DNA of 64,000 bases, from the NCBI GenBank assembly GCA_965230925.1, contig OZ246403.1, positions 3,367-67,366 of the forward strand. Direction: 5' to 3'. A program made the translations under genes and the position numbers. This document shows positions 23,509-54,691 of the stretch, in pieces. The notes under the pieces are model-generated. The model saw only the letters and a program-made list of their open reading frames with translations. It was not told where the DNA came from and made no database searches. Position 1 is the stretch's first letter; each line of letters starts with the position of its first letter. Origin of the DNA: an uncultured Candidatus Saccharibacteria bacterium (GTDB lineage Bacteria > Patescibacteriota > Minisyncoccia > Phycocordibacterales > JACOZG01).

Positions 23509-23510
23509 AA

Positions 23511-31468: not shown

Positions 31469-31501
31469 TTTTTTTGTTATGATACGCAGGTTCAAATAAT
31501 C

Positions 31502-32458: not shown

Positions 32459-33320
32459 AAGTCTCGGAGTTTTGATTGAGTGTTCTTTGTTGATTTTTTC
32501 AAAGAAACATCTCTCTTTGAAAAGAAAGTTTTCTTTGTTGCTTTGTTATTTCTCTATTGTCATAAAAAGAAAACTTAGAAGAAGATTCGGTGCTTTTTTT
32601 AATTATTCCAAACAAAGAATACTGGGATTTGACGTGTTGCTAGATAATTTTAGGGAAGATTTTTATTGGATTTTTAAAGAAATTTTTATCGAGGAAAATT
32701 ATTATTTTAAGTCCGACAGAGAAGACCCTTTTATAATTGATTGCGGGGGAAATATTGGTATCAGTGTTCTTTATTTTAAAACGATCTACCCCAAATCAAA
32801 GATTATTACTTTTGAGCCAAACCCCAGTAATCTTAAGTTGCTTAATGAAAACTTGAAAAAAAACGCAATTGTTGGTGTTAAGGTTTATGATCTTGCCCTG
32901 GGCGCACGTGACGGATCGGTAGATTTTTTCACACATGGCCCTGGAACTACCATGTACGAAGAGTTTTCAATAAAACAAAAAAAGGTTAATCTGGACGAGG
33001 CTGGTTTGAAGGTAAAGGCAAAGATTGTGCGGCTGTCCCCTTATGTGTCTCAAAGGGTTGATTATTTGAAGTTGGACGTGGAGGGGGCTGAGAGCGATAT
33101 TTTGTGTGAATTGAAAGACTCGGGGTCCCTTTCTAAGGTTGATAGAATTGGTATGGAGTATCACCAGTTTTCTTCGAGCACCAACAAGTTGTCAGTTGTT
33201 GCCAACGTGTTGGAAGAAGGAAACTTTTTCTTTTTTTGTGCAAGCGGTGCCCGTAACCTTTCCGAGCCAGTAAAAAGTAATTACAAAACTTTTATGATTT
33301 TTGCTTCTAGAAACAGATGA
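32445..33320 (+). CDS. FkbM family methyltransferase (Methyltransf_21), paralog 1
   Basis: IIDCGGNIGISVLYF...ITFEPNP.N...YLKLDVEGAESDIL. Confidence 0.6.
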   Translation: MAFIKSLGVLIECSLLIFSKKHLSLKRKFSLLLCYFSIVIKRKLRRRFGAFFNYSKQRILGFDVLLDNFREDFYWIFKEIFIEENYYFKSDREDPFIIDCGGNIGISVLYFKTIYPKSKIITFEPNPSNLKLLNENLKKNAIVGVKVYDLALGARDGSVDFFTHGPGTTMYEEFSIKQKKVNLDEAGLKVKAKIVRLSPYVSQRVDYLKLDVEGAESDILCELKDSGSLSKVDRIGMEYHQFSSSTNKLSVVANVLEEGNFFFFCASGARNLSEPVKSNYKTFMIFASRNR

Positions 33321-34159
33321 CCTCCCCTTTTTTAATTTTAAGTCAGTTTTTCACCGTAATCAAGAAAAGACACCTGTCGATTCCTAAACGTTTTTCTTTG
33401 CTTAGCTTGTATTTGAAGATTTTGATTGAGAGATTTATTAGGGGGAGGGTTCCGGGGTTCTTTTCAGAAAGTTCCACCAACTTTTTGTTTTCAAGGATTA
33501 ATTTTTGCCGGTTTGATGATTTTTTTTGGACTTTTATTTCTGTTTTTATTGACGAGGAGTATTATTTTAAAACGAACAAAAAATCCCCACAAATCATAGA
33601 TTGTGGAGGTAATATAGGTCTCGTGGTTCTTTATTTTAAGTGGATTTACCCCCTTTCTCGTGTGACCGTGTTTGAGCCAATAGAAGAAAATACAAAATGT
33701 TTAGAAAAAAACACCAGCTCTCTTTCTGGTGTCAGGCTAATTAATGCTGCTGTTTCTGGTAATGATGGGTACGTTGATATTTATGGTGTTGGGAGGGCGG
33801 CAACAATTGACCCAAACTTTATAAAACTAAAAGGACAGATAAAACAAAACGACAGAACAAAGAGGGTCAGTGTAGTAACGGAAAAGTTGTCAAAATATAT
33901 TGACAGCGAGGTTGATTACTTGAAAATTGACATTGAGGGTGCGGAGGGTGAGGTGATTGAAGAGCTGGCCGCCAGTGACAAGTTAAAAATGGTTGATCGT
34001 GTTGGTATGGAATACCATCATTATTCTTTGTCAGAAAATCGTCTTTCAGAAATAATAAAACATCTTGAGCTGGCCGATTTTAATGTTTCCTTTTCAGGGA
34101 ACGGCTCACTGCCAAGCTGGAGGTATTATAATTTCATGTTATATGCCAAGAGAAATTAA
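33317..34159 (+). CDS. FkbM family methyltransferase (Methyltransf_21), paralog 2 (tandem duplicate)
   Basis: IIDCGGNIGLVVLYF...VFEPIEEN...YLKIDIEGAEGEVI. Collinear with the previous gene. Confidence 0.6.
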   Translation: MTSPFLILSQFFTVIKKRHLSIPKRFSLLSLYLKILIERFIRGRVPGFFSESSTNFLFSRINFCRFDDFFWTFISVFIDEEYYFKTNKKSPQIIDCGGNIGLVVLYFKWIYPLSRVTVFEPIEENTKCLEKNTSSLSGVRLINAAVSGNDGYVDIYGVGRAATIDPNFIKLKGQIKQNDRTKRVSVVTEKLSKYIDSEVDYLKIDIEGAEGEVIEELAASDKLKMVDRVGMEYHHYSLSENRLSEIIKHLELADFNVSFSGNGSLPSWRYYNFMLYAKRN

Positions 34160-35528
34160 GACAATTTTCATTACGGTGTCAAAAGACATTATTCGTCGGA
34201 ACATTCTGGATACCGATTTTTGGCAATTTTTTGTTAACGCAAACGTTAATAACAAAATTGTATTGCTTGTTGATAAGGGGCGTGAAGGTTATTACCGAGA
34301 GCGTTTTAATGGAACTAATGTTGTGGTAGAGGGATACGAACGCCAACCTCACCAGGGTTGGCGAAAACTTTTGTTTTTTCTTGCTCGAACTGGCATTCGT
34401 TCAAAAAGTAACACCTTTCATAGATGGCATGCTTATAAGAGGGGGAGGGCCTCGCTTGCGGTGACATTGTTGAAAAGCCTAGTTTCCAACACTTTTGTTC
34501 GGTGCGGTTGGTATAAAAAACTAATTAGATTGCTGATTCTAAAAACGCGGTCACCTCGAACAATTGAAAAAATATTTGAAACACATAAACCAAGTGTTGT
34601 TTTTACCCCATCTCTCATTGATGCCGACTTCGATGCCCCTTTTGCTGTTGAAGCAAAAAAAAGAAGAATATCAGTTGTGGGAATGGTCAGGAGTTGGGAT
34701 AACCTCAATCATCACGGGTTACTTACGGTTGTGCCAAATCATTTTGTCTTTCAAAACAAATGGCTCAAGTACGCGAGCAGGTATTTCCAGGCGGTTGAAA
34801 TTGAAAAAATTGAGACCACCATTATCGGTCTTCCTCACTATGATAGATACAAAAACCCCGGAGCAGTTTTGAAAGATCGAACATCTTTTTTTGAAAGTGT
34901 GGGTTTAGATCCAGATAAAAGACTAATCTTTTTGGGGGGTTCCGAATATTATTACAGTGAGGATTCTCTTGTGCGATGGTTGAACGAAATGATTGAGTCG
35001 AAGCAATTGAAACAGCCAGCCCAAGTTATGTTTAGGATGCACCCAAGCTCTATTTTTAAGGTTGAAGATTTTAGGCTGGAAAATTTACCCCACATTGTTC
35101 TAGACACTGCAACAACGCAAAAAGATGGTAGTCCGATTTTTACGGACACGGAGAAGTTTGTTAATTTGTTGTACTATTCTGATGTAACAATTAACATCGG
35201 GTCAACCCTTTCTATTGACGCTTCCGCTTTTGATCGTCCGGCTATTGCTATTGATTTTGATGACCCAGCAAAAAATTTGTCATATTGGGAATCAGTAAAG
35301 CGTTTTAACGATTATTTTGACCATCAAGTACGTTTGTTGCAGACAGGGGGAGTGAGCACTCCAGGTTCGCTGGGGCAACTAATACAATCAATTAACAATT
35401 ATTTTGAAAACCCGTTGCGTGACAATGAAGGAAGAAAGAAAGTTCTCGAAGAGTTTGCCGCCCCTTTCGATGGTAAGGCGGGGGAACGGCTAGCGTCCAC
35501 CTTCGATTCAACCTTAAATCAAACTTGA
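34143..35528 (+). CDS. CDP-glycerol glycerophosphotransferase-like (TagB/TagF family) protein (tentative; track ORF starts at 34065)
   Basis: The C-terminal motif VNLLYYSDVTINIGSTLSIDASAFDRPAIAIDFDD resembles Glyphos_transf (ITDYSS..fDf....kP). Confidence 0.35.
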   Translation: MPREIKTIFITVSKDIIRRNILDTDFWQFFVNANVNNKIVLLVDKGREGYYRERFNGTNVVVEGYERQPHQGWRKLLFFLARTGIRSKSNTFHRWHAYKRGRASLAVTLLKSLVSNTFVRCGWYKKLIRLLILKTRSPRTIEKIFETHKPSVVFTPSLIDADFDAPFAVEAKKRRISVVGMVRSWDNLNHHGLLTVVPNHFVFQNKWLKYASRYFQAVEIEKIETTIIGLPHYDRYKNPGAVLKDRTSFFESVGLDPDKRLIFLGGSEYYYSEDSLVRWLNEMIESKQLKQPAQVMFRMHPSSIFKVEDFRLENLPHIVLDTATTQKDGSPIFTDTEKFVNLLYYSDVTINIGSTLSIDASAFDRPAIAIDFDDPAKNLSYWESVKRFNDYFDHQVRLLQTGGVSTPGSLGQLIQSINNYFENPLRDNEGRKKVLEEFAAPFDGKAGERLASTFDSTLNQT

Positions 35529-35543
35529 CCAGAGTCTACTTAT

Positions 35544-36686
35544 GTGCTAGTGTGTAGGGGCACTAGCTCGGTGCTGGTGTGTTTTTCCGCGATGGGTCGC
35601 GGTGGATTGTCCTTTGAGAATTTGGAGGTGTTTGTGGCCAAGATTGTTTTGGTGGCTCGTGATGCCGCACCATCAGGTTGTTTCAGTCGTCTAGAACCCG
35701 TCCTTAGAGAACGTGGGTTTGAGGTAGAGCTTTTTGTGGGAGCGGGTAAGCCGCTTGTTCAATCTGTTAAACGGATTGAACAAGCCACCTCTGTTTCTAC
35801 GATTGTTCTTCTGGGCATGTCATCCTCAGCTGAACTGGCTGAACCAGAGCTTGTTGCTGGGCGTTCTGCTTTGGAAGCCGGCATACGTTACGGTTTCTAT
35901 GGAGACGTGCCGCGGTGTTGGGCACGAGCCCGTCCCGGAGCTTGGTTCGAGGAGCTGGCCAGTAGCACGTCATTTTATCTTGGTATTACTGATAATGATG
36001 CTGAGGGTGCTCGGGAGGTGTTTACCTCTGCTCTCTGTGTTGGCACTGGTAATCCGCTCCGCGAGGACATGGCCTTCCCACGTCTAACGCGAGAAGATGT
36101 GCGGAAAAAACTCGGAGTCAGTGACGAACATAAGTTGATCTTAGCCTCTGGCGATAAATTTGCCGCTGGGAACATGGTTACGTGGGCGACACTGATAGGA
36201 ACGATCCTTCGTTTCAAGGAGCAGGAAATTCAGCTCCTGTTAACTCTCCATCCTGGAGATCGCACGGACCTGAAGCTTTACGACGAACTTGTTGAGTTAA
36301 GTTCTGTGCCAACGAGGATTATCCCGAGAGATGTCTTAACTGGTTCGGAAATGATCCCGGGCGTCGATCTGGTGGTAGACTTTGGTGGTTCGATAGGGAT
36401 TGAGGCGGCGTACTCTCGTGTTCCGGTGATCAGTTTGGAGTTCGAGGTTTTGTTTATTAGCCTTGAGCGTAAGAATGGTAACCGTCTGCGCGAGGCGGTG
36501 GAAGCAGGTGCTGCAATGGGTGTTGACCCTGCTGGTTTGGAGGAAGCTATCCGCCTTCTCCTCGGTCCTGAAGGAGTCGCAAATATGAAAAAGCGACAGG
36601 AGACCTCTTATCCAAAACCGATTGAGAGGGGCGTAGCCCTCAAGAGGATCGCTGACGCCATCACACGAATTGCGCAGGTGGAATAG
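35544..36686 (+). CDS. Hypothetical GT-B-fold-like protein (possible glycosyltransferase or UDP-sugar 2-epimerase-like) in the higher-GC island (alternative start 35592)
   Basis: KIVLVARDAAPSG ... DLVVDFGGSIGIEAAYSRVPVISLE is reminiscent of GT-B C-terminal nucleotide-sugar-binding folds. No firm family. Confidence 0.25.
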   Translation: MLVCRGTSSVLVCFSAMGRGGLSFENLEVFVAKIVLVARDAAPSGCFSRLEPVLRERGFEVELFVGAGKPLVQSVKRIEQATSVSTIVLLGMSSSAELAEPELVAGRSALEAGIRYGFYGDVPRCWARARPGAWFEELASSTSFYLGITDNDAEGAREVFTSALCVGTGNPLREDMAFPRLTREDVRKKLGVSDEHKLILASGDKFAAGNMVTWATLIGTILRFKEQEIQLLLTLHPGDRTDLKLYDELVELSSVPTRIIPRDVLTGSEMIPGVDLVVDFGGSIGIEAAYSRVPVISLEFEVLFISLERKNGNRLREAVEAGAAMGVDPAGLEEAIRLLLGPEGVANMKKRQETSYPKPIERGVALKRIADAITRIAQVE

Positions 36687-36715
36687 TTCAAAGTCAGTCG
36701 TTTCGGTATATTCTA

Positions 36716-36746
36716 GAGGCCCGATCTTTCGGGCCTCTTTATTTTT
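36716..36746 (+). terminator. Rho-independent terminator (GAGGCCCGA-tcttt-CGGGCCTC followed by TTTATTTTT)
   Basis: An 8-9-bp GC-rich stem followed by a T-rich run. Confidence 0.6.
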
Positions 36747-37176
36747 GATTTGAAAGGGGAACTTTTATGAGAATTAAACGCGCTGTGCCAGATGAGCTGT
36801 CTTGGTGGGGGACGCCGGCTGAGACCCATAGCCATTCTCCTTGGCGTAGAACGTGTTCGGTGCCGCCGTGCATTAATTTTGCTTTAAGTTCGTTCGGATC
36901 ATCATTCCCGTTCGATTGTTTAACGTGCCGTGGTTCTATTAATTCTCCTCCACACCTGAAAGTTACTTCACCCTCTAAACAAAACCAAAGATCAGCTTCT
37001 CTCATGTGTACCTCAGCCTCGTTGTTTTCAGTTTGATGGTTTTCTATAATTTTTATTGGCAAATTATTTTCTTTTGCAAAGGTGCGGAACGGTTCAAGAC
37101 TTTTTTTGCCAGGAGTTGATGTTACCGCCAGAGTCTCTTCGACTTGTTTTTTTGTGATATGGACGACCGTGTTCAT
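36739..37176 (-). CDS. Cupin-domain protein (ORF extends to 37221)
   Basis: EVHMREADLWFCLEGEVTFRCGGE...LRQGEWLWVSAGVPHQ fits a cupin beta-barrel. Confidence 0.4.
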   Translation of the reverse strand: MNTVVHITKKQVEETLAVTSTPGKKSLEPFRTFAKENNLPIKIIENHQTENNEAEVHMREADLWFCLEGEVTFRCGGELIEPRHVKQSNGNDDPNELKAKLMHGGTEHVLRQGEWLWVSAGVPHQDSSSGTARLILIKVPLSNQK

Positions 37177-37309
37177 AATATTTATTTTAGCAGTCCGCAG
37201 GAGGCGACGCACTCTGGACAAAAAATTAAAGAGGTGTTATGTTGGTCGTCTGCCCGGAGTGTTCTGGGTAAGCGTTTTTCGCGAACGGGTCGTGAGAGTA
37301 ACTTGAAAA

Positions 37310-38338
37310 TTGAGGAGAGATCACTTGGATCAACGAAACATAATCGTTGTTTGTCTAATGCTTGCTACGGCCCTTTTTATTGGCTGTCACGGTGTGATTC
37401 AGAGATGGATGTTTCGAGATAAAAGATTCTCGCAACGCGAAGTCTTAATCTGGCAGAATGTGGTGGCGGCGGGTATCTTTCTCGCGGTGGCGCTTTCCAC
37501 TGACTTTGGTGTTGACCCCCTTGCCCAGCATAACCTGGTCTTTTGGGGGGCAATCTCGCTTACCACAATTGCTAACATTGGCATCCAATCAGCCAACGCT
37601 TACGCACGCGGGTTGGCTGAAGTTTCGTTAACTTCGCCGATTCAGGCGCTAACACCGGCTTTGGTAACTGTTGCAGCCTTGTTGTTGAAGGAGTTGCCGT
37701 CAGCGGTTGGTGTAGTGGGTATTCTGATGATCAGTTTTGGAATCTTTGTTCACCTGAACGAGAGTGCCGAACACTGGCGCGACTACTTGCGGCCATTTAA
37801 GTTGTGGCGGCTGCCACCCAATTACCCACAATTGGGGTCGGAGGAAAAACGTTGGGCGCGCAATAATCGTCGAGCACTTATTCTATCGTACGTCTCGGCC
37901 GTTCTTGGGACAGTTGGCTTACTTGGTGACAGTGTTTCCTCGCGTACTGGTAATGTTGCCATCGGTTTTACGGTACACCTCGCGGTTTTGGCTCTTGTTT
38001 TTGCGGTTGTTTTGCCGCGGAACCATCAGCTGTCGTTAGAAGTGACCAAGCCAGTTGGTTGGCGTTATTGGTTACCGGTTGTCGCGGCCGGAGCAGTGTT
38101 TGCCTTGGTTGTACTTTTACCTCTGATTGCTTTTCGGTTTGCACCCGTGGCGTATGTTGGCTCACTAAAGCGTTTGGGTATTTTGGCCACGGTCATTCTT
38201 GGTTGGTTGTTCTTAGGCGAAGTCAAGGCAAAGCGTCGTTTGATACCAGCAACCATTGTGGTTATTGGGGCTATGTTGCTGTTCTTTGACCCGGCTTCTA
38301 GGAAGATTGTTGAGGCTGCGGCAGAGACGTTCAAGTGA
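37310..38338 (+). CDS. EamA/DMT-superfamily membrane transporter (about 10 TM)
   Basis: Polytopic and hydrophobic with an internal two-domain repeat of TM bundles. Could be a nucleotide-sugar or metabolite transporter. Confidence 0.4.
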   Translation: MRRDHLDQRNIIVVCLMLATALFIGCHGVIQRWMFRDKRFSQREVLIWQNVVAAGIFLAVALSTDFGVDPLAQHNLVFWGAISLTTIANIGIQSANAYARGLAEVSLTSPIQALTPALVTVAALLLKELPSAVGVVGILMISFGIFVHLNESAEHWRDYLRPFKLWRLPPNYPQLGSEEKRWARNNRRALILSYVSAVLGTVGLLGDSVSSRTGNVAIGFTVHLAVLALVFAVVLPRNHQLSLEVTKPVGWRYWLPVVAAGAVFALVVLLPLIAFRFAPVAYVGSLKRLGILATVILGWLFLGEVKAKRRLIPATIVVIGAMLLFFDPASRKIVEAAAETFK

Positions 38339-38426
38339 AATTGGTTCGGAGGTTTTAACCCACAGGGCTTGCTGTAAGCGAGCCCTTTTTGTTGCTCGTA
38401 AACGGAGAATTTGTTATTTTGATGAT

Positions 38427-39110
38427 ATGCAAAACAAATTTACCGCGGTTGTTCCTGCGCGCGGGGGCAGCCGTCGACTAAAGGATAAACACACTATTCC
38501 ATATGCTGGGAGCAATCTTTTAATCCACAAGATTCGTCAGCTAAAGAGGGTTGAGTCAATTGATAGTATTGTGGTTTCATCAGACTCAGACACGATGCTT
38601 GAAATGGCCAAAAATGAAGGGGTGCTGACTCACAAAAGATCTCCAGAATACTGTGATGAAGAAACAAAAAGTTTCGGTGAGGTGGTCAAGCATGTTTGTG
38701 AGAGTGTGGTGGGAGAAAACATTGTTTGGGCGCAGTGCACTTCACCCTTGGTGGTGCCGTCCCAATATAAAGATACAATTAGTGTTTATTTGGATAATTT
38801 AGGCAAACATGATTCTCTTGCTTCGGTTGAGGCGTTCAGAAGGCATCTTTGGGATGACAACGGCCCGGTTAATTACGAAAGAGGTAAGATGCATCCGCCA
38901 TCACAGAAGTTGCCTCAAATGTATTTCGTAACGGGGGTTTTTATTGCTCCTCGTAAAAAAATGATTGAGTGGTATCACAACATTGGCCCCAATCCCTATA
39001 AATACATTTTACCGAGGACAAGTTGCGTTGACATTGATGATGAGCTAGACTTTGATTTGGCTAAGCTCTGGCACGATAGGGCGTGTGATTGTTTGGTGAA
39101 AGGAAAATAA
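38427..39110 (+). CDS. Acylneuraminate (nonulosonic acid) cytidylyltransferase family protein (CTP_transf_3; NeuA/PseF/KdsB-like)
   Basis: N-terminus AVVPARGGSRRLKDKHTIPYAGSNLLIHKI is the hallmark of CMP-sugar synthetases of this family. Confidence 0.6.
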   Translation: MQNKFTAVVPARGGSRRLKDKHTIPYAGSNLLIHKIRQLKRVESIDSIVVSSDSDTMLEMAKNEGVLTHKRSPEYCDEETKSFGEVVKHVCESVVGENIVWAQCTSPLVVPSQYKDTISVYLDNLGKHDSLASVEAFRRHLWDDNGPVNYERGKMHPPSQKLPQMYFVTGVFIAPRKKMIEWYHNIGPNPYKYILPRTSCVDIDDELDFDLAKLWHDRACDCLVKGK

Positions 39111-39112
39111 AT

Positions 39113-39775
39113 ATGGCAATAAAAGTCGTGTCCTTTGATTTTGATGGGGTTTTTGTTCTTGATTCGGATGCTGTGTTCAAGAAAGAAGCTTGGGGAATTG
39201 TCTTTGAAGGTTACGGAGAAGGCCGTTATCGACCCCTTCTTGATGAGGGTAATCGGCGGTATGGCTCAGGTAAGCCGGGGGGGCGAGTAGAAATCATGGC
39301 ATATGTTTTTGCTGGATTGGGTAAACCTGAAATGGAAATACCGGGCCTTGTTGAAGAAGCAGCCAAGGTGTTCGACAATCATGTTCAGGCCAGAATTTTA
39401 GAGGCTGGCTTAGTGTCGGGGACACGAGAAGCCCTTGAAGAGTTAAGACGTCGAGGCCTTTCTTTATATCTTAATTCTGGAACTGCCACTAGGGCTCTCG
39501 AGCTTAGTGCCCGCAACCTTAACATCTCCCAGTTCTTTGGTGGTATTTTTGGAAGCACAAGGGGCAAGACAGACAATCTTCGGACAATGTCCGAACGGGA
39601 GTCTGTTGGGCCACAAGAAATTTTAGTGGTTGGAGATGGTGATTCTGATAGGGTTGCTGCCGAAGAGTTCGGAGCGCCTTTTCTGGGGGTAGCCAATCGT
39701 TGGAATAAGTGGGCGAATACAAAAAAAGAATTCCCTCTCATTGACCACTTGTCCCAAGTTTGTCAATTTGTTTAA
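39113..39775 (+). CDS. HAD-superfamily hydrolase/phosphatase
   Basis: Motif I VVSFDFDGVFV (DxDG). C-terminal motif GDGDSD. Confidence 0.6.
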   Translation: MAIKVVSFDFDGVFVLDSDAVFKKEAWGIVFEGYGEGRYRPLLDEGNRRYGSGKPGGRVEIMAYVFAGLGKPEMEIPGLVEEAAKVFDNHVQARILEAGLVSGTREALEELRRRGLSLYLNSGTATRALELSARNLNISQFFGGIFGSTRGKTDNLRTMSERESVGPQEILVVGDGDSDRVAAEEFGAPFLGVANRWNKWANTKKEFPLIDHLSQVCQFV

Positions 39776-39835
39776 TCTTGAGGAGTGGTCAACCGTTGTG
39801 GCCGCTCCTTTTTGTTTGTGGTAGGATAAAGTCCT

Positions 39836-40933
39836 ATGAGTATTTCTTTAACCACCAACATTAAAAGATTGTTTAGTTTATTGCCAGCCAAAGTAAAAAT
39901 TCAAGATTTTTATGTTGGCGAAGGACGACCCGTTTTTGTGGTTGCGGAGATAGGCAACAACCATAATGGAGATTTTAATTTAGCTCTCAAAACAATTTTG
40001 GCGGCAAAAGAGTCTGGTGCCAATGCGGTTAAATTTCAAAGGCGAACGGTAGACGAGGTCTTCACTAAAGAAATGCGAGATATGCCTTATAATAATCCGC
40101 GATCATTGGCGCCCACCTACGGGGAGCACAGAGAAAAGCTGGAATTTTCTCCTCAGCAGTTGGTTGGTCTTAAGGATTATGCCGAAGATCTTGGCTTGGT
40201 GTTCTTCGTAACTCCCTTTGACCAAAAAAGCGCGGATTTTTTAGAGTCAATTGATGTGCATGCGTATAAGATCTCCTCTTTTGATGTTACCAACTTGCCG
40301 CTCCTAGAACACGTTGCCAAGAAGAACAAACCAATTTTGTTGTCAACCGGCATGTCGACCATCGAGGAAATCGACCAAGCAATCGAATGCATATTGTCCT
40401 ACAATAATCGTTTAATTGTGAATCATTGCACCTCTATTTATCCAACGCCAGATGATAAGATTGATCTCCAGATAGTTCAAACACTAACCGAGCGTTATCG
40501 ACCTCTTCCGGTTGGCTACTCTGGCCACGAGCCTGATATTTTGCCAACTATTATGTCGGTTGGGTTGGGGGCAAAAACAGTGGAGCGTCATTTTACTTTA
40601 GATAAGAACATGCGCGGATCCGACCATCACATGTCTATTGAACCTTCAGAATTTAAAAAAATGGTTGACCGAATTCGCCGGGCTGAGGTTTTTTTGGGTT
40701 CTTCTAAGAAACAAATACACGAACAAGAAGTGCCTATAAGAGAAAAGCACGCCAAAAGCATTGTGACAAAAAGAGAAATTAAAAAAGGAGAAACCATTAC
40801 AAAGGACGCAGTTTCTTTCAAAAGCCCTGGTTATGGTTTTAAACCAGCCCTTCTTCACCGTGTTGTTGGTCGGAAGGCGAACCAAGACTTGCCTGTTGAT
40901 ACGGTGATCCTAGAGAAGTTTTTGGGTTCTTAG
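39836..40933 (+). CDS. neuB: N-acetylneuraminate (nonulosonic acid) synthase, NeuB/PseI/LegI family with a C-terminal SAF domain
   Basis: VAEIGNNHNGDFNLALKTILAAKESGANAVKFQ. HCTSIYPTP. C-terminal SAF domain KREIKKGETITKDAVSFKSPGYG. Confidence 0.7.
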   Translation: MSISLTTNIKRLFSLLPAKVKIQDFYVGEGRPVFVVAEIGNNHNGDFNLALKTILAAKESGANAVKFQRRTVDEVFTKEMRDMPYNNPRSLAPTYGEHREKLEFSPQQLVGLKDYAEDLGLVFFVTPFDQKSADFLESIDVHAYKISSFDVTNLPLLEHVAKKNKPILLSTGMSTIEEIDQAIECILSYNNRLIVNHCTSIYPTPDDKIDLQIVQTLTERYRPLPVGYSGHEPDILPTIMSVGLGAKTVERHFTLDKNMRGSDHHMSIEPSEFKKMVDRIRRAEVFLGSSKKQIHEQEVPIREKHAKSIVTKREIKKGETITKDAVSFKSPGYGFKPALLHRVVGRKANQDLPVDTVILEKFLGS

Positions 40934-42314
40934 GTTTTTTCCATTTTTCTATTAAAAAAACCAAACCATATCCCCCGAACACAAAAATAATAGGAGTTGC
41001 TTTGTAGCGGTGTCGCCCGTGATCACTAAAACCAACTGAGATTGTTCCGAGCCAATAAATAACCACTAGGGTTGCTAAGAAAAAGGCCACAAACCTTCTG
41101 GGGTTGTTTTTTTTACTCGCCGTGATAATCCCCACCAGCATTAAAATTGTTATCGTGATCCAAAGGAGTCTTCCCGCAACTGGAACTGTAGCTAAAAATC
41201 CCATTAGGTTCCAAACCCTAGTCATTAGTTCTATAGGACCATCTTTTAGGAGAACTAAGGAAGGAGAAAAAGATAGTTCTATGTTTTTTATTATCCCGTA
41301 GTGTCTCAGATAGGTCGTATATAAGTCTTGAGTGAAAAATGTCATGGTGTTTATAAACAAAACCCCAACCCCTTCTGCTGGGTTTTCCAAAACGATCTTC
41401 CAGCCCTCTTGAACCAAGAGTTTGCCCAGCCCCGGGTCGGTTGTTATGACATCCTCGTCCACGGTGTATTTCTGAGAAAAATCTAGCCTGAGTTGTTTTT
41501 GAACCTCGTGGATAGGTTGGCCAGTCTTGAGACTGATTATAGATGGGGCCAAACTCGAATAAACGTTTCTTATTCCCGTTGTCGCGATTGAGGCGGAGCC
41601 AAAACGGACGTGGTTTCTTACCAACCAGGGTGAGACGACCATGAAAAAAGTAAAAGTAAACACAAGGAAAGTCATACCAAGTCCGGGGTGAACCATCTTC
41701 TTTTTGAACGATTTGACGACAAAAAAACATAACATCACTATGCAGATAAGCACAGAAATATAATAAGTTTCTGGTCTGGTTAATGAGGATAGACCAAGAA
41801 GCAAACCAGCCAAAGCGACGTTTTTCCATGTTGGCTCTTGAAAAACTCTAGTTAAGAGGAAAATTCCAGCTGCACCAAGGAATGTTGCGATGGTGTCTGT
41901 AAGTAAGGTTGTGCTCAGGTAAATTGAAAGTGGTTCAAAAGCCATCAAAAAAGCAGCAAAATTGGCCGCCCGGTAATTGTTTGAAAGGGCAAATCCAATT
42001 TTCCACACAAAGAGAACCGTTAGAGATGCAAGGGTTACTTGTAATAAGAGGAGCGGTACGATTGAACCACTTAGTCCAACCGAGATTGCGATAAGAAAGG
42101 GGTAAAATGGGGGAAAGCGACTTCCTGGGATAAAAGGCGCAGCTGTTTCTTGAGAAAAGCCGTGTCCAGAAAGTAGGTTTATTCCTGTTTGGTAAAATCC
42201 CCACGAGTCAGACAAAAAGAAACCCTCAGAACCAGAGCCGTTGTAAATTGCGAGTAGTAGCAGCAATCTTATTAACAGGGCCAGGCAAACAATTAAGACC
42301 ACGCGTTTTATCAT
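40839..42314 (-). CDS. ArnT/PMT-like GT-C (GT39/GT83-type) polytopic membrane glycosyltransferase. Its 3' end overlaps neuB convergently by about 95 nt.
   Basis: About 12 TM. The N-terminus MIKRVVLIVCLALLIRLLLLLAIYNGSGSEGFFLSDSWGFY is typical of ArnT/PMT_2 family proteins. Confidence 0.5.
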   Translation of the reverse strand: MIKRVVLIVCLALLIRLLLLLAIYNGSGSEGFFLSDSWGFYQTGINLLSGHGFSQETAAPFIPGSRFPPFYPFLIAISVGLSGSIVPLLLLQVTLASLTVLFVWKIGFALSNNYRAANFAAFLMAFEPLSIYLSTTLLTDTIATFLGAAGIFLLTRVFQEPTWKNVALAGLLLGLSSLTRPETYYISVLICIVMLCFFVVKSFKKKMVHPGLGMTFLVFTFTFFMVVSPWLVRNHVRFGSASIATTGIRNVYSSLAPSIISLKTGQPIHEVQKQLRLDFSQKYTVDEDVITTDPGLGKLLVQEGWKIVLENPAEGVGVLFINTMTFFTQDLYTTYLRHYGIIKNIELSFSPSLVLLKDGPIELMTRVWNLMGFLATVPVAGRLLWITITILMLVGIITASKKNNPRRFVAFFLATLVVIYWLGTISVGFSDHGRHRYKATPIIFVFGGYGLVFLIEKWKKPKNPKTSLGSPYQQASLGSPSDQQHGEEGLV

Positions 42315-42364
42315 ATTCAGATTTTAACCCAACACGGCCGGCGGGAAGGATTGATTTTTTTTCG

Positions 42365-43315
42365 ATGGCATGCTTTATTATTGTTATGTTGTCAGTGGTT
42401 GTTCCGTTTTATAACGAAGAAAAAACGGTCGGTGAATTGCACCGGGGTATTTTTTCTGCCTTAAGTAATATGGGGGTGGGTTTCGAAATAATCTTTATTG
42501 ATGATGGTTCTACAGATGACACTTGGGTGGAGATCAAAAAGTTAAACAAGGTGATAGCCGTTCGTCTAAAGAGGAATTTTGGTCAGACGGTTGCTTTGAG
42601 CCATGGTTTGGCGCGAGTAAAAAATGAAATTGTTGTGACTATGGATAGCGATCTTGAAAATTTACCCGAAGATATTCCCCGTTTAGTGGCTAAACTAAAG
42701 GAAGGCTACGATGTGGTTTGTGGTTGGAGAAAAAACAGGTGGTCTCAAGAGTTTTTCACAAGAAAGCTACCGTCTTATTTTGCCAACCTTTTTATCTCTG
42801 TGGTGAGCGGTGTTAATTTACACGATCATGGTTGCGGGTTGAGGGCCTACAAAAGAAAGGTTTTTGAGGATGTCAGTTTCAATGGAGACATGCACAGAAT
42901 GTTGGCAATATATCTAGGAATAAACGGATCAAAAATAGTTGAAATTCCGGTTTCCTTTGTTCCTAGAAAACACGGGGTTTCGAAGTATGGTCTTTCTCGT
43001 ACTTTCAAGGTGATCTTGGACATAGTAGCTTTCTTTTTCTTTAAAAAGTTTTCTAACCGACCAATGCATTTCTTTGGATATTTCGGTTTTATAAGCATTG
43101 GTTTGGGGTTTTTGGCCTTTCTGTATTCATTATACTTAAAATTTTTTGAAGCAACCCAATTGAACCGCACCCCTCTTCCTGAGCTGGTTGCCATTCTTGT
43201 CGTTGTTGGGTTCCAGTTTGTGCTAATGGGGCTTGTGGCAGAATTAATTACTAGGTCTGGGCCCAAAAGTGGTAAAATAAACCAGGATGAAGTTGGAGAA
43301 GAAATCCACAATTGA
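42365..43315 (+). CDS. GT2 glycosyltransferase, polyprenyl-phosphate sugar synthase type (ArnC/DPM1-like) with C-terminal TM helices (track ORF starts at 42248)
   Basis: LSVVVPFYNEE...FEIIFIDDGSTDDT...MDSDLEN(P): D..DD..D and DxD motifs. Two C-terminal TM helices as in ArnC/GtrB. Confidence 0.65.
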   Translation: MACFIIVMLSVVVPFYNEEKTVGELHRGIFSALSNMGVGFEIIFIDDGSTDDTWVEIKKLNKVIAVRLKRNFGQTVALSHGLARVKNEIVVTMDSDLENLPEDIPRLVAKLKEGYDVVCGWRKNRWSQEFFTRKLPSYFANLFISVVSGVNLHDHGCGLRAYKRKVFEDVSFNGDMHRMLAIYLGINGSKIVEIPVSFVPRKHGVSKYGLSRTFKVILDIVAFFFFKKFSNRPMHFFGYFGFISIGLGFLAFLYSLYLKFFEATQLNRTPLPELVAILVVVGFQFVLMGLVAELITRSGPKSGKINQDEVGEEIHN

Positions 43316-43529
43316 TCTCTTGAAAAAAATTCCTCTGGTGAATTTTTTTTGGGAAAAAAGCTTTTTCCATTACCTGTGGACGGGTGGAGTTTTTACGGTT
43401 TTAAATATCTTTTTAGTTTGGTTACTAATTGATTTTTTGAAGGTTCCAACCATAGTTTCCACAACCGTTGTAATCGGGGGCTTGTTTGTATTAAGATACG
43501 TTTTTTATCGGTGGTTAAAAATTTTGTAA
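43287..43529 (+). CDS. GtrA-family small membrane protein (putative lipid-linked sugar translocase subunit)
   Basis: 80 aa. HYLWTGGVFTVLNIFLVWLLIDFLKVPTIVSTTVVIGGLFVLRYVFYRW matches GtrA-like proteins. Immediately downstream of the GT2 gene. Confidence 0.55.
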   Translation: MKLEKKSTIDLLKKIPLVNFFWEKSFFHYLWTGGVFTVLNIFLVWLLIDFLKVPTIVSTTVVIGGLFVLRYVFYRWLKIL

Positions 43530-43631
43530 AACCACTAAATACTTAGGAGCAGTGTTTGAAGTGACGATATTGACTATTTGTCTTAGGTGCTATAGTGTTT
43601 TTTTGAACAGCAAACAGCTCGTGGAGTTGTT

Positions 43632-44162
43632 TTGACAAAATGGTTGTTTTTTCCGAAAGGAGGGTTTGTGGACCTTGTTTCAGGTGTTCTGGTCTATTTT
43701 CTAACCAAGCTACTGTTTCAGCACTCATTTTCTTTACCAGAACTCGCGATTAGTATCTGTTTTGCGTTTGGGCCTGACCTTGATCTTGTCCCCTTCTTCT
43801 TGTTGCGCCGAAGGATGAAGCTTGTGAGCCATTGGATTATTCACTTTCCGCTCCCGTACATTCTGTTTGGTGGGCTGGTGGTCTGGGGGATAACGCGAGA
43901 GTGGTTCTTTCTTCTAAACTTTGTTTTTGCGAGCTTGGCACATTTTATCCACGATACGGCAAGTGTGCCTGGGATTAGGTGGCTGTGGCCGCTGTCTCGA
44001 CAGGCTTATGCCGTTGGCTGTAGCGGTGTGGTTCTGGTGAGTGAGGATGAGAGGCGCCGTTTCTACGATAAAATGGGTGATGGGGCACAACAACGAAGTT
44101 TTTTGGACGAGATCAAAATACGAGTGGGTCGGTGGCGACCGACATGGATGCGGCGTGGGTGA
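43632..44162 (+). CDS. Hypothetical membrane protein (possibly a DUF457/YdjM-like membrane-bound metal-dependent hydrolase)
   Basis: Several TM segments. The LAHFIHD motif is weak evidence. Confidence 0.3.
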   Translation: MTKWLFFPKGGFVDLVSGVLVYFLTKLLFQHSFSLPELAISICFAFGPDLDLVPFFLLRRRMKLVSHWIIHFPLPYILFGGLVVWGITREWFFLLNFVFASLAHFIHDTASVPGIRWLWPLSRQAYAVGCSGVVLVSEDERRRFYDKMGDGAQQRSFLDEIKIRVGRWRPTWMRRG

Positions 44163-44258
44163 TTTCGGGAAAAAGAAAGGTAATGCAACACGCGGAGAGT
44201 GATCCTTTCCGCGTGTTTTTTCTTGCTGTTTTTTTAAAAATTTGTTTTACTTTGTTTT

Positions 44259-44867
44259 GTGGGATTGATTTCTTTTTTAAAAAAACTTCCGGTTGATGTT
44301 GGACAGGCTGAAAGAAAACACGATTCTGCAGGCAAGCTAATCGCCTTTTCTTTTATTAATAGCGCGAAAAAAGGGGGGCGGGCGCTTGATATTGGTTGTC
44401 GAGATGGTTACTGGGCAGAAAAACTTAAGACAAAAGGCTACGACGTTTCCGCCATTGACCTTGAACCTCAGTATGAGTCGGCACTTACTCATGATGTAGA
44501 AAAGGGGCTACCCTTTGGTGAAAGGAGTTTTGATGTTGTGTGGTGTACCGAGGTAATAGAGCATTTATACCAGCCTGGGAGTCTCTTAGAAGAAATTCGG
44601 AGAGTGTTGCGGCCCGGTGGGATTGCTGTTTTAACTACCCCTAATTCAGGCTGGTGGTTTTATAAAATAGTTAAGCTTTGGGGTTGGACGCCAAAGAAAC
44701 TACAAAATCCCGATCACAAGCAGTTTTTTACTGAGAAGTATCTAAAGAAAATGGCCCCAGAATATTCTTGTTTTGGCTATTTTCCGTACATTTTATTTTT
44801 TCGGAAGATTAAAAGACTTGTTGGTTTTCTTTCGCCCACATTTGTTTTAATTTATGTTCACTTATAG
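44259..44867 (+). CDS. Class I SAM-dependent methyltransferase
   Basis: ALDIGCRDGYWAEKL (motif I). VVWCTEVIEHL. VLRPGGIAVLTTPN. Confidence 0.6.
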   Translation: MGLISFLKKLPVDVGQAERKHDSAGKLIAFSFINSAKKGGRALDIGCRDGYWAEKLKTKGYDVSAIDLEPQYESALTHDVEKGLPFGERSFDVVWCTEVIEHLYQPGSLLEEIRRVLRPGGIAVLTTPNSGWWFYKIVKLWGWTPKKLQNPDHKQFFTEKYLKKMAPEYSCFGYFPYILFFRKIKRLVGFLSPTFVLIYVHL

Positions 44868-44900
44868 ACTAAACTCGGGTTACTTGTTAATGTCTCAAAC

Positions 44901-47093
44901 ATGAAAAACGTTTTACGCTCTTTAACCCTAGGGATAATTTTTGTCGTACCGTTTGTACCCCTGATGGTTACCGAGTCTTTATTTTTTCCTTTTATTACCG
45001 GTAAGAACTTTGGGTTTCGGATTATTGTAGAAATCCTTGTTGTTTTGTGGCTTATTCTTGCCTTGCGAGATCAGGCTTATCGGCCACGACGTTCAGGAAT
45101 TCTTTGGGCGGCTATTGCTACGGTGGGCTTTTTAATCCTTGCCACTATTTTTGGTCTTAATCCTTACCGCAGTTTCTGGTCTAACTTTGAGCGCATGGAG
45201 GGCCTTATTACCCACCTCCATCTTTTTGCCTACTTCTTGATTTTGATTTCAGTACTTAAAACAGAAAAGCTGTGGTCCTGGTTTGCCCATTCTTCTTTGG
45301 TGGCAAATCTAATGGTGGGTGTTTATGCTTCATATCAACTTGCTGACAAATTGCTTATTAATCAAGGTGGTGCGCGCGTGGATGCTACTTTTGGTAATGC
45401 CACTTACCTTGCGGTTTATGAGATTTTCCACATTTTTTTACTTGTTTTCTTAATTTTGCGACCGAGATTAAAATCTACCATAACCGGCGTATGGTGGCTT
45501 CGGGTTGGATATTTAGCCCTGCTTGTTCTAGACCTTATTTTACTTTACAAGACCGCCACCCGCGGAGCCGTGCTCGGTCTTATTGGAGGGGTATTTCTTT
45601 CCGGTCTTCTCATTGGGGTTTTCGAGCGTGATAATCGTTGGATTAAGAAAATGGGTTTGGGGTTTGTGGCCGCAGTAATTGTTCTCGTCGGAGTCTTTTT
45701 GGCCTGGCGTGATACTGACTTTGTTCGCGAAAGTCCGGTATTGAGACGTTTCGCCACTATTTCATTGAATGATTCTAACGCCCGTCTTCTCATTTGGAAT
45801 ATGAGTTGGGAGGGCTTCAAAGAGCGGCCAATTCTTGGGTGGGGACCAGAGAATTATCCTCTTGTTTTCAATAAATATTATGATCCGCGAATGTACAACC
45901 AAGAACAATGGTTTGACCGTTCACACAACGTAATTTTTGATTGGTTAATTACCGCTGGCATCCTCGGTCTTCTGGCCTATCTTTCACTTTATCTTACTGC
46001 GCTTTATTGCTTGTGGCGACGGGCAAGTCCTTTTAGTGTTACCGAAAGATCGTTGTTCACCGGTCTCCTTGCTGCCTATTTCTTCCATAATATTTTTGTT
46101 TTCGATAACCTGATTAGTTATTTACTTTTCTTTGCTCTTTTGGCCTATTTCCATGTTCGAAGCGTCGAGAATGTGGGTAGTTCTGTGTGGATCAAGAAAA
46201 ATTTTTCATATCCCACACAAACCATTGCGTCGGTTGCGGTGGGGATTGTTGTTCTTTTCTGTCTCTATTCTTTTAATCTTAAGCCCATTCTTGCCGGACA
46301 AACCCTCATTCAAACACTAAGCACTCAAGACGCTAATCAGAAAATTACTTTACTCGAGAAGGTGTTTACCTACAACACCTTTGTTTCTACTGAAGCAAGT
46401 GAGCAAGCGGTTTCTGTGGCTTCCCAGGCCGCAGGGTTCAAAGACCTGCCGGGGGAAATAAAACAAAAATTTGCCACTCTTGCTTTGCAAGAAATTGATA
46501 ACTCTATCAATCGTGATCCAGAAAATGCTCGGTACCATTTGTTCCGGGGTTCGCTTTTAACCCGCTTTGGTCAGTTTGAAGATGCAGAAAAGAGTCTCCT
46601 GAAGGCAAAGGAACTTTCACCCAAGAAACAAACATTGATTTTTGAACTTGGTAATTTGTACTTAGCAAAAGGGGATAACCCCAAGGCTATTGCTATTTTC
46701 AAAGAAGCCTTTGAGCTAGAACCTCGCTTTGAAGAGGCGAGACGTGCATACGCTATTGCTGCAATTCTAACGGGCGACAATAAGCTTGCTGACGAAATTA
46801 TTTCCGGAAGTACAAACCCAAATTTTACCGTTGACGATCGCTTTATTAACGCTTATGCCGCGACTAAGCAGTTTTCTAAACTTTTAACTTTGTGGCAAAA
46901 GAAGGTGGAAAATGAGCCAGAAAACGCGCTGTCTCGAACCTCGCTAGCCATGGCTTATTGGGCCAACAATCAGCGCACTAACGCTATCACTGAGTTCCGT
47001 AAGGCCGCTGAGCTGGATCCGAAGTTGCAAATAGAAGTTGATAAAACGATTAAGGTGATTCAGGACGGTGTTCGCTTCGACCAAGTTAAATAA
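44901..47093 (+). CDS. O-antigen ligase (Wzy_C) family polytopic membrane protein with C-terminal TPR repeats
   Basis: N-terminal region with about 10-12 TM and a Wzy_C-like large periplasmic loop. C-terminal FRGSLLTRFGQFEDAEKSLLKAKEL / GNLYLAKGDNPKAIAIFKEAFELEP TPR units. Confidence 0.55.
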   Translation: MKNVLRSLTLGIIFVVPFVPLMVTESLFFPFITGKNFGFRIIVEILVVLWLILALRDQAYRPRRSGILWAAIATVGFLILATIFGLNPYRSFWSNFERMEGLITHLHLFAYFLILISVLKTEKLWSWFAHSSLVANLMVGVYASYQLADKLLINQGGARVDATFGNATYLAVYEIFHIFLLVFLILRPRLKSTITGVWWLRVGYLALLVLDLILLYKTATRGAVLGLIGGVFLSGLLIGVFERDNRWIKKMGLGFVAAVIVLVGVFLAWRDTDFVRESPVLRRFATISLNDSNARLLIWNMSWEGFKERPILGWGPENYPLVFNKYYDPRMYNQEQWFDRSHNVIFDWLITAGILGLLAYLSLYLTALYCLWRRASPFSVTERSLFTGLLAAYFFHNIFVFDNLISYLLFFALLAYFHVRSVENVGSSVWIKKNFSYPTQTIASVAVGIVVLFCLYSFNLKPILAGQTLIQTLSTQDANQKITLLEKVFTYNTFVSTEASEQAVSVASQAAGFKDLPGEIKQKFATLALQEIDNSINRDPENARYHLFRGSLLTRFGQFEDAEKSLLKAKELSPKKQTLIFELGNLYLAKGDNPKAIAIFKEAFELEPRFEEARRAYAIAAILTGDNKLADEIISGSTNPNFTVDDRFINAYAATKQFSKLLTLWQKKVENEPENALSRTSLAMAYWANNQRTNAITEFRKAAELDPKLQIEVDKTIKVIQDGVRFDQVK

Positions 47094-47123: not shown

Positions 47124-47248
47124 TTGACTTCTGTTGGTCATTCTGCTAAGATGCTCGGCGTGAGTGCTGTAGGCCTTTGGCTTAGGTACTAACAAATAAA
47201 TGTCTTACGTAAGTCCCGCCCTTGTGGCGGGATTTGCGTTTTTTTGAC
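47124..47248 (+). ncRNA. Candidate small RNA transcription unit with a sigma70-like promoter and an intrinsic terminator (unknown function)
   Basis: TTGACT-17nt-TAAGAT at about 47124-47152. The terminator CCCGCC-cttgtg-GCGGG plus T-run sits at 47215-47248. No ORF lies in between. Confidence 0.3.
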
Positions 47249-54670: not shown

Positions 54671-54691
54671 TTAGGTCACAACTGAATATTG

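Follow-up and report, generated by a model that had tools for sequence, protein, structure and literature searches.

A predicted WaaL/PglL-type glycan transferase and a rare GT-C cassette at the 3′ border of a hypervariable surface-glycan island of a Patescibacterium

We analyzed a 64,000-nucleotide stretch of contig OZ246403.1 (assembly GCA_965230925.1), hereafter the window, in which two sets of putative genes for lipid-linked sugar transfer stand side by side at the 3′ edge of a region of surface-glycan genes (Table 1). The first is a single gene whose product joins a Wzy_C domain to tetratricopeptide repeats (Wzy_C-TPR). The second is a cassette with a GT-C glycosyltransferase of the PMT_2 type, an ArnC/GtrB-like GT2, a small GtrA-like membrane protein, and an S-adenosylmethionine (SAM)-dependent methyltransferase. 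A preliminary description of this DNA had singled out the Wzy_C-TPR, GT-C, GT2, and GtrA-like open reading frames (ORFs), all of which we found with the positions and domains it gave, and had read them as one dedicated pathway for O-glycosylation of giant Ser/Thr-rich fibre proteins encoded nearby. Homologues of Wzy_C-TPR bear source names such as Patescibacteria, Parcubacteria, Paceibacteria, Lloydbacteria, and Wolfebacteria, and on this basis the genome is that of a Paceibacteria-type Patescibacterium. Exact copies of the window proteins are found on a 716-kb contig, and samples SRR12822863 and SRR12808459 contain this genome. Because an outer membrane has been proposed to be absent from this phylum (PMC12102498), neither the lipid A-core that WaaL uses as acceptor nor the lipid A phosphate used by ArnT is expected here, and no lpx or waa genes lie within the window; lipid A or lipopolysaccharide (LPS) is therefore an unlikely acceptor, as the preliminary description had held.

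Table 1. Genes and other features of the window, in window coordinates (S+T, serine plus threonine content; TM, transmembrane helices)
Feature	Coordinates	Strand	Evidence or remarks
3548-aa secreted fibre protein, S+T 28%	248..10894	+	Signal-peptide-like N-terminus; C-terminal Peptidase_S74 2.6e-10
Cytoplasmic glycan assembly genes	22427..30101	+	Pfam: six GT4, epimerase/dehydratase, GT47-like, methyltransferase
Wzx-type flippase	30050..31468	+	Polysacc_synt 8e-10
Nonulosonic-acid module	34065..40933	+	Pfam, NCBIfam; syntenic in locus L009
BFO_1060-like transferase	34065..35528	+	NCBIfam match, Tannerella BFO_1060 glycosyltransferase family
WecB/NeuC-like protein, weak match	35544..36686	+	Pfam/NCBIfam
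Cupin ORF inside the span of the nonulosonic-acid module	36739..37221	-	Pfam/NCBIfam
EamA/DMT transporter	37310..38338	+	Pfam/NCBIfam
CMP-sugar synthetase	38256..39110	+	Pfam/NCBIfam
HAD phosphatase	39089..39775	+	Pfam/NCBIfam
NeuB	39836..40933	+	Pfam/NCBIfam
GT-C, PMT_2 type, 491 aa	40839..42314	-	PMT_2 9e-11, PMT 3.9e-6
ArnC/GtrB-like GT2	42365..43315	+	Glycos_transf_2 8.6e-33
Half-length GtrA-like membrane protein, 80 aa, 2 TM	43287..43529	+	Sub-threshold GtrA_DPMS_TM
YdjM-family membrane protein	43632..44162	+	Pfam YdjM 5.9e-9
Intrinsic-terminator-like hairpin, strong	44187..44217	+	13-bp stem, 7 GC pairs, T-run
Class-I SAM methyltransferase, soluble, 202 aa	44259..44867	+	Methyltransf_23 2e-21
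Wzy_C-TPR protein	44901..47093	+	Pfam Wzy_C 6e-22 and many TPR matches
Terminator-like hairpin, strong	47207..47239	+	14-bp stem, 8 GC pairs, T-run; after Wzy_C-TPR
1767-aa secreted protein, S+T 24%	54689..59992	+	LVIVD repeats and Peptidase_S74

The Wzy_C domain of Wzy_C-TPR spans residues 207 to 361 and scores 78.5 bits (Pfam cut-off, 31.7). An AlphaFold2 (AF2) model built on 50 homologues (pLDDT 90.5, pTM 0.87) starts with nine TM helices; a large loop (residues 270 to 343) separates TM9 from TM10, and the four TM helices after it (344-372, 380-399, 404-425, and 437-474) are followed by an all-helical TPR domain of ∼245 aa (478-721). Among its top 50 solved structures in Foldseek, WaaL (7tpg) is the sole membrane protein (7tpg_B: E 1e-4, TMt 0.65, 454 columns, 16% identity). 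A single-sequence PDB search with the Wzy_C TM domain returned nothing informative, and only a family profile, searched with the membrane part, reached WaaL (2.8e-5). That profile alignment pairs four motifs with those of CmWaaL, namely, TRGA (R221), RL..W (R295), P..G.G (P310, G313, and G315), and AHN (H342), and all of these residues are invariant across the 50 homologues. R221, R295, and H342 correspond to the functionally important Arg/Arg/His triads of EcWaaL (R215/R288/H338) and NmPglL (R224/R298/H349) (PMC3643930). By predicted fold and retained catalytic residues, Wzy_C-TPR thus belongs to the WaaL/PglL superfamily, which bears out its earlier grouping with the protein O-oligosaccharyltransferases PglL and PilO.

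The model also points to a distinctive topology. WaaL has 12 TM helices, three of which follow the big periplasmic loop, and its C-terminus is cytoplasmic. Wzy_C-TPR has an extra 13th helix, the fourth after the loop, and its K/R-rich short loops (57-65, 186-197, 242-245, 373-379, and 426-436) alternate as expected; the TPR domain would therefore share the outer side of the membrane with the catalytic loop. Conservation is 0.72 to 0.97 in the loops placed outside versus 0.19 to 0.68 in the cytoplasmic loops, and although it is lower in the TPR domain (0.49), several residues there are invariant.

Wzy_C-TPR is widespread, and its position relative to other genes is stable on one side only. A word-indexed search returned >5863 homologues, the best 120 of which are ∼45 to 59% identical to the window protein save one nearer relative at 74%, and a scan of one genome per species found relatives in at least 593 species genomes. 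From these, 80 loci, all from Patescibacteria, were kept as a synteny sample (tblastn), with Wzy_C-TPR identities of ∼40 to 50%. SecA is encoded 3′ of Wzy_C-TPR, on the same strand and within 7.5 kb, in 42 of the 45 loci with enough downstream sequence. Gene content on the 5′ side is variable: NeuB-like genes occur in 10/49 loci, ArnC-like GT2 genes in 5/49, and relatives of the methyltransferase in 12/49, and a divergent Wzx lies within 1 kb in 15/70. The closest relative (L034; 71% protein identity for Wzy_C and 90% for SecA) places the border almost exactly. DNA similarity begins at window position 44982 (L034 position 6455), within ∼80 bp of the 5′ end of Wzy_C-TPR, and runs on through ABC1, SecA, and further; nothing 5′ of 44982 matches, and the whole 22- to 45-kb glycan region is without counterpart in L034. 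This makes Wzy_C-TPR the first conserved gene past the border of a hypervariable island and, judged by its distribution and synteny, a phylum-wide core gene at the edge of that island. Ligase chemistry conserved across classes, next to a complete turnover of neighboring glycan genes, suggests that it behaves as WaaL and PglL do, with one conserved acceptor and many donors, and since lipid A is not expected in these cells, some other conserved molecule must serve as acceptor.

The GT-C enzyme of the cassette exceeds the Pfam cut-offs for both PMT_2 (42.7 bits; cut-off, 26.1) and PMT (27 bits; cut-off, 22.7), and its AF2 model (pLDDT 84) shows the GT-C fold shared by AglB/STT3/PglB, Pmt, and ArnT. 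Foldseek ranked AglB/STT3/PglB best, followed by Pmt4, Pmt1-2, and ArnT (19th), with query-normalized TM-scores of 0.32 to 0.51 that are too alike to fix the subfamily. A PDB sequence search gave nothing informative, and NCBIfam matched only the LA_3751/3752 family (37 bits), with no match to the ArnT equivalog. Pfam detected no MIR and no YfhO domain, and the motif S-D36-S occurs instead of DE. Asp36, directly after TM1, belongs to the first outside loop and reaches at least 90% conservation; R180, P229, W230, R233, and N234 are also conserved, and an all-helical insertion of ∼120 aa (approximately residues 239 to 359) is placed outside. The protein ends ∼30 residues past its last TM helix in a K-rich, low-confidence tail with no C-terminal soluble domain. 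We infer from the model that this end is cytoplasmic, which fits the C-terminal methyltransferase fusions of relatives described below. NeuB and GT-C are convergent, and their 3′ ends overlap by 95 bp; the overlapped GT-C tail (residues 465 to 491) is predicted to be disordered.

The GT2 is predicted to be a polyprenyl-phosphate sugar synthase. Its closest solved relatives are ArnC (1e-44), GtrB (1e-25), and archaeal DPM synthase (1e-22); its NCBIfam matches are led by ArnC (173 bits, below the cut-off of 529), with PgfS second best (125) and AglJ at 96; and it has two C-terminal hydrophobic helices (240-258 and 274-292). The 80-aa ORF that follows overlaps the GT2 stop by 29 nt. The preliminary description had called it a GtrA-like translocase subunit. 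The likeness to GtrA holds over half the length: its match to GtrA_DPMS_TM (21.1 bits; cut-off, 26.1) is sub-threshold and covers profile positions 62 to 115 of 117, that is, the C-terminal half only. Orthologues adjoin GT2 in L008 (48% identity, 24.3 bits) and L085 (40% identity, 28.3 bits) and match the same half of the profile, and by this evidence the ORF is a genuine half-size GtrA-like gene and a candidate flippase or helper subunit. We also considered that it might be the broken-off tail of a four-TM DPMS-like GT2 and rejected this because it is conserved as a separate gene in L008 and in L085, where it lies upstream of GT2. Across loci, the slot beside GT2 holds the half-length GtrA (window; L008, 10281..10526; L085, 79..333), a full-length GtrA (L080, 9490..9963; 44 bits), or a PQ-loop-like LAB_N protein (L009, 1426..1707; 98 bits), a pattern that resembles non-orthologous displacement at a putative flippase position. 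Separately, a 10-TM EamA/DMT-family transporter accompanies GT-C in two loci, the window and L010 (8155..9264; 35% identity). It could be an alternative flippase for undecaprenyl-phosphate-sugar, because ArnE and ArnF are also DMT-type proteins.

The methyltransferase gene ends 34 bp upstream of Wzy_C-TPR, and its orthologues in L007, L009, and L010 are 46 to 63% identical, overlapping the start of GT-C in L007 and L010. The YdjM gene between it and the half-length GtrA stands outside the conserved cassette, being absent from the other GT-C loci and matched only once in the 80 loci. Two hairpins, at 44187..44217 and 47207..47239, divide the region into a predicted GT2/half-GtrA/YdjM unit and a predicted methyltransferase/Wzy_C-TPR unit.

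We found the cassette to be rare and its members to be closely associated. Among 1.84 billion representatives, GT-C orthologues form ∼20 clusters at E<1e-60 and 56 at E<=1e-30, within a wider set of 1632 compact (∼460-aa) GT-C relatives at E<=1e-10 with 25 to 31% identity. The orthologues always occur with GT2 and a SAM methyltransferase of ∼200 aa, and beside Wzy_C-TPR where the contig is long enough; GT-C, GT2, and the methyltransferase co-occur in the window and in loci L007, L008, L009, L010, and L080. L009 is syntenic with the window except that the LAB_N protein replaces the 80-aa ORF, and L008 has the order NeuB, GT-C, GT2, 82-aa ORF, methyltransferase, Wzy_C-TPR; in both, the GT2 beside GT-C is 59 to 60% identical to that of the window. 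L080 has GT-C, GT2, methyltransferase, full-length GtrA, Wzy_C-TPR, MurB, and SecA in that order. L007 and L010 share the order oxidoreductase, GT2, DegT aminotransferase, methyltransferase, GT-C, with Wzy_C-TPR nearby in L007; the L010 contig ends first. L007, from Sungiibacteriota, also carries a fused LPG_synthase_TM-methyltransferase protein (567 aa; 2390..4093) between its Arn-like cassette and Wzy_C-TPR.

Gene fusions in relatives link the same components. GT-C is fused to a methyltransferase domain in P0157 and P0173 (at the cytoplasmic C-terminus; 31% identical to the window methyltransferase, E 4e-13), to GT2 in P0182, to GtrA and a second GT-C in P0161, and to an ArnD-type deacetylase in P0171. 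This synteny and these fusions confirm, at the level of gene organization, that GT-C, GT2, and the small protein, together with a co-evolving methyltransferase, form a rare accessory cassette inside the island. They also uphold the three-component logic of lipid-linked sugar transfer in the preliminary description, without its extension to one route of four genes: Wzy_C-TPR belongs to the core genes, only 3/80 of its loci contain a GT-C relative, and the cassette is absent from the genome of L034, which keeps Wzy_C-TPR.

Upstream of the cassette, the glycan region is equipped to build an oligosaccharide in the cytoplasm. Its G+C content is 37 to 40% (window positions 24000..34000) versus 45 to 53% in the flanks, consistent with horizontally exchanged glycan genes. 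Of the upstream genes named in the preliminary description, the GT4, GT47-like, FkbM (two of the methyltransferases in Pfam), and Wzx genes are present as given; the label "TagF-like" was dropped for the first gene of the nonulosonic-acid module, which matches the BFO_1060 family instead. The locus name BFO_1060 occurs in papers on a Tannerella transferase for pseudaminic- or legionaminic-acid derivatives. Given this family match and the neighboring NeuB and CMP-sugar synthetase, the product is most likely a nonulosonic-acid transferase. The Wzx flippase is the presumed supplier of undecaprenyl-diphosphate-oligosaccharide to Wzy_C-TPR. Among the scanned window ORFs, Pfam found no Wzz/GNVR/PCP protein, second Wzy, LCP ligase, or priming phosphoglycosyltransferase; Mur ligase genes are present. 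One GT4 is split over two ORFs with a 4-bp overlap, the first (22427..22966) carrying the N-terminal Glyco_transf_4 domain and the second (22963..23508) the C-terminal Glycos_transf_1 domain. Either the gene is truly split or it is a pseudogene with a frameshift. A comparable C-domain-only GT4 (182 aa) is present in L005. Directly 5′ of the island lies an orphan VirD4/TraG-like type IV coupling-protein ATPase (20775..22430), the only gene of a type IV secretion system in the window. Thousands of orphan VirD4 homologues are known in Patescibacteria, according to the literature.

Taken together, these genes suggest two lipid-linked, extracytoplasmic routes that meet at the 3′ edge of the island. 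In the first, GT4 enzymes and other transferases in the cytoplasm would build a methylated undecaprenyl-diphosphate-oligosaccharide, probably with a nonulosonic acid, which Wzx would flip. Wzy_C-TPR, as a transferase of the WaaL/PglL type and not a repeat-unit polymerase, would then move this glycan as one block, on the outside of the membrane, onto a conserved acceptor other than LPS. The most plausible acceptor would be Ser/Thr (or Tyr) residues of secreted surface proteins that the external TPR domain recruits, and the outcome would be general O-glycosylation comparable to that of WsfB or PglL. In the second route, the GT2 would load one sugar onto undecaprenyl phosphate, and the half-length GtrA, possibly with the EamA transporter, would help the product across the membrane; GT-C would transfer the sugar outside, to a side branch of the first glycan or directly to protein. 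The methyltransferase probably tailors the donor sugar on the cytoplasmic side before flipping, at the nucleotide or lipid-linked stage, by analogy with ArnD, which acts on undecaprenyl-phosphate-Ara4FN. We advance this whole scheme tentatively, as having somewhat less than an even chance of being right. For its two acceptors the grades differ. On precedent, the odds that Wzy_C-TPR uses a protein acceptor are roughly even. For GT-C, the GT4 fusions taken up below and the location of the cassette within the island tip the balance somewhat toward a side branch of the Wzx-dependent glycan; PgfS/PgfM1, GtrB/PgtC2, and Ppm1/Pmt provide precedents for direct Ser/Thr glycosylation, and a wall polymer is a third option.

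Each route has recognizable counterparts among known systems. WsfB of Paenibacillus alvei is a predicted S-layer O-oligosaccharyltransferase with Wzy_C and TPR, and WsaB of Geobacillus stearothermophilus likewise has Wzy_C; a C-terminal TPR has been reported in both WsfB and PglL (PMC2943079). Compared by description only, WsfB and WsaB resemble Wzy_C-TPR in being Wzy_C enzymes of LPS-lacking bacteria, encoded with glycan-assembly genes and predicted to use a lipid-diphosphate-linked glycan donor; the Patescibacterial protein differs in being encoded by a phylum-wide core gene that flanks variable islands, not in a dedicated S-layer glycan locus. With PglL and PilO it shares the superfamily, the Arg/Arg/His triad, and, for PglL, the TPR, and the placement of a conserved enzyme beside variable donor-glycan genes fits the relaxed donor specificity of PglL; it differs from them in having no PglL_A domain, no adjacent pilin or target gene, and a host proposed to have a single membrane. 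With WaaL of Cupriavidus metallidurans (7tpg), the fold and the catalytic motifs align, and WaaL is likewise encoded outside the variable O-antigen locus. The differences from WaaL are the 13th TM helix, the ∼245-aa TPR domain placed outside the cell, and a host in which the lipid A-core acceptor is not expected.

The second route resembles the Arn pathway most in its GT2, whose best match is ArnC, and in its overall plan, in which the sugar of an undecaprenyl-phosphate donor is altered while still on the lipid, after which a GT-C transfers it. In L007 and L010 the likeness extends to the DegT aminotransferase and the oxidoreductase, as in ArnB and ArnA, and in one GT-C relative to the fused ArnD-type deacetylase. 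Unlike ArnT, however, GT-C lacks a C-terminal periplasmic domain and an equivalog match, lipid A is not expected as acceptor, and a methyltransferase stands where ArnD would be. The triads GtrA/GtrB/GtrX, GacI/GacJ/GacL, and CsbB/GtcA/YfhO also combine a GT2 and a GT-C with a small membrane protein, are encoded within or close to a glycan locus, and add one sugar outside; here the GT-C is of the PMT_2 type, not YfhO or GtrX, and the small protein is a half-length GtrA, or a LAB_N or full GtrA in other loci. Actinobacterial Ppm1/Pmt and streptococcal PgfS/PgfM1 and GtrB/PgtC2 likewise pair a polyprenyl-phosphate-sugar synthase with a GT-C; the PMT match of the window GT-C is above cut-off, and PgfS ranks second among the NCBIfam matches of its GT2. 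These systems glycosylate Ser/Thr-rich extracytoplasmic proteins and adhesins in single-membrane bacteria; for PgfS/PgfM1 and GtrB/PgtC2, the targets are Ser/Thr-rich regions and adhesins (bioRxiv 10.1101/2024.05.05.592596). The cassette of the window differs from them in that its GT-C has no MIR domain, a single Asp36 in place of the DE motif, and no YfhO membership.

Several observations weigh against protein as the acceptor. PglL_A (PF15864), the domain that sets PglL apart from WaaL, is absent from Wzy_C-TPR, as is Wzy_C_2, at both E<=0.01 and E<=10, thresholds at which HMMER filters may still hide very weak matches. Hidden Markov model and topology checks had been suggested in the preliminary description; its PglL motif thus came out negative, while PMT_2 and Wzy_C scored above cut-off and the TPR domain was placed outside by a combination of helix count in the model, the positive-inside rule, and homology to WaaL. 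No pilin or other obvious target gene adjoins Wzy_C-TPR. Wzy_C-domain proteins of single-membrane bacteria include putative polymerases such as TuaE of Bacillus subtilis. For the cassette, five GT4-GT-C fusions in distant relatives (P0183, P0199, P0216, P0276, and P0181), at least one of them from Patescibacteria, favor a glycan acceptor. In these fusions the cytoplasmic GT4 lies at the N-terminus of GT-C, and one polypeptide would glycosylate on both sides of the membrane.

The same body of evidence gives some weight to a cell-wall glycopolymer route, in which Wzy_C-TPR would ligate the flipped glycan to peptidoglycan, lipid II, or a membrane-anchored glycolipid and the GT-C cassette would decorate that polymer with a single, possibly methylated, sugar, much as GacI/GacJ/GacL or CsbB/GtcA/YfhO do, with proteins not serving as acceptor at all. 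MurB is the commonest downstream neighbor of Wzy_C-TPR, lying between it and SecA in 25/45 loci, which could mean a cell-wall acceptor, and Mur ligase genes occur in the window, which offers no LCP-type ligase for this job. GT-C always lies inside glycan islands and is tied to polysaccharide assembly by the GT4 fusions; in Firmicutes, triads of a GT2, a small protein, and a GT-C decorate wall polymers. Against this, the murB-secA synteny may be mere conserved housekeeping gene order, and TPR domains more often serve to recognize proteins, examples being WsfB, PglL, and TfpW, a GT-C pilin transferase with a periplasmic TPR. TPR domains also recognize proteins in TMTC and OGT, and we know of no Wzy_C-family enzyme that uses a peptidoglycan acceptor. 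We regard the cell-wall route as unlikely, if deserving of attention.

Of the two remaining accounts, the one closest to the preliminary description is that the GT-C triad and Wzy_C-TPR form a dedicated pathway for the giant Ser/Thr-rich Peptidase_S74 fibres of the window. The preliminary description had counted more than 6,000 extremely Ser/Thr-rich residues. The count stands (3548 + 1767 + 438 + 364 = 6117 aa), and "extremely" overstates the composition: S+T is 28, 24, 21, and 19% in these four proteins, compared with ∼9 to 15% in other window proteins, and the fibres have few poly-S/T tracts, unlike the disordered Ser/Thr tracts modified by streptococcal GT-C systems. The fibres are secreted, 7.6 kb separate Wzy_C-TPR from the downstream gene for the 1767-aa fibre, and PMT-family and streptococcal GT-C systems do glycosylate Ser/Thr-rich adhesins. 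Linkage of this kind is not conserved, however: ORFs that reach both 500 aa and 19% S+T occur within 10 kb of Wzy_C-TPR in only 11/80 loci, most genomes with Wzy_C-TPR lack GT-C, and the triad and Wzy_C-TPR fall in separate predicted transcription units. Both giants carry Peptidase_S74, an intramolecular-chaperone domain known from phage tail fibres and spikes (endosialidase), and are therefore likelier to be folded fibres than disordered regions. The Peptidase_S74 domains, the scarcity of poly-S/T tracts, and the 11/80 count also weigh against a protein acceptor in the main scheme. A dedicated fibre pathway thus seems improbable, its only link to the fibres being co-residence in a compact genome. 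The wider idea of protein O-glycosylation remains plausible by analogy, and the fibres are reasonable candidate substrates of a general system, no more so than pilins or other secreted proteins.

The least probable account, that Wzy_C-TPR is the Wzy polymerase of a Wzx/Wzy pathway for a capsule-like or S-layer-associated polysaccharide whose ligation falls to an enzyme encoded elsewhere, gains something from its being the only Wzy-like polytopic protein of the island, often paired divergently with Wzx, and from the fact that some polymerases fall under Pfam Wzy_C, but we rejected it as the best explanation and consider it very unlikely because of the conservation and position of the protein: it is ∼40 to 50% identical across the sampled loci despite completely different neighboring glycan genes, it lies outside the variable segment, and it keeps the ligase/oligosaccharyltransferase Arg/Arg/His set in a window with no Wzz/PCP chain-length regulator, whereas Wzy polymerases act on specific repeat units and their genes diverge more than most others in such loci.

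A few further features surround the fibre genes. The sole tRNA gene of the window, tRNA-Leu(CAG) at 99..182, lies immediately upstream of the gene for the 3548-aa fibre, which has long internal repeats (for example, blocks at ∼300-410 recur at ∼590-690 and ∼1886-2036). Just 3′ of it is a three-gene run (11788..15532) whose first and third products have signal-peptide-like N-termini and Ig-like domains (Big_6 and Big_13) and may be fibre-associated surface proteins.

The components described here belong to known enzyme kinds; the most valuable lead is the phylum-wide enzyme that combines Wzy_C, a 13th TM helix, and TPR, which is uncharacterized in the literature we searched. Searches on the Patescibacterial Wzy_C-TPR family and on glycoproteins of the Candidate Phyla Radiation (CPR) returned nothing specific, and a recent study of Saccharibacteria pili terms glycosylation there "unexplored." Patescibacteria make up a large and mostly uncultured share of bacterial diversity; they live attached to other microbes and have a surface chemistry that is largely uncharted. 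The presence of a WaaL/PglL-type enzyme in at least 593 species genomes that lack LPS implies a different, conserved acceptor. A bolder possibility, which we consider rather doubtful, is that this enzyme is the general O-oligosaccharyltransferase of Paceibacteria-type Patescibacteria, displaying the glycan of whichever island it borders on many secreted proteins, including pili, fibres, and S-layer, or, less expectedly, a WaaL-type ligase with a peptidoglycan or lipid II acceptor.

Wzy_C-TPR is a single, well-modeled protein with clear catalytic residues and so is directly testable in Escherichia coli glyco-engineering strains, and the cassette of GT-C, GT2, and methyltransferase, with its fused forms, neatly illustrates how the tailoring of a donor sugar can be coupled to a GT-C. 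Once the acceptor of Wzy_C-TPR is named, the way in which these cells assemble their surface coat would become clear, perhaps along with the way in which they alter it to recognize hosts and evade phages. If Wzy_C-TPR does prove to be a general O-oligosaccharyltransferase, switching of the island glycan would drive both host and phage specificity in these epibionts.

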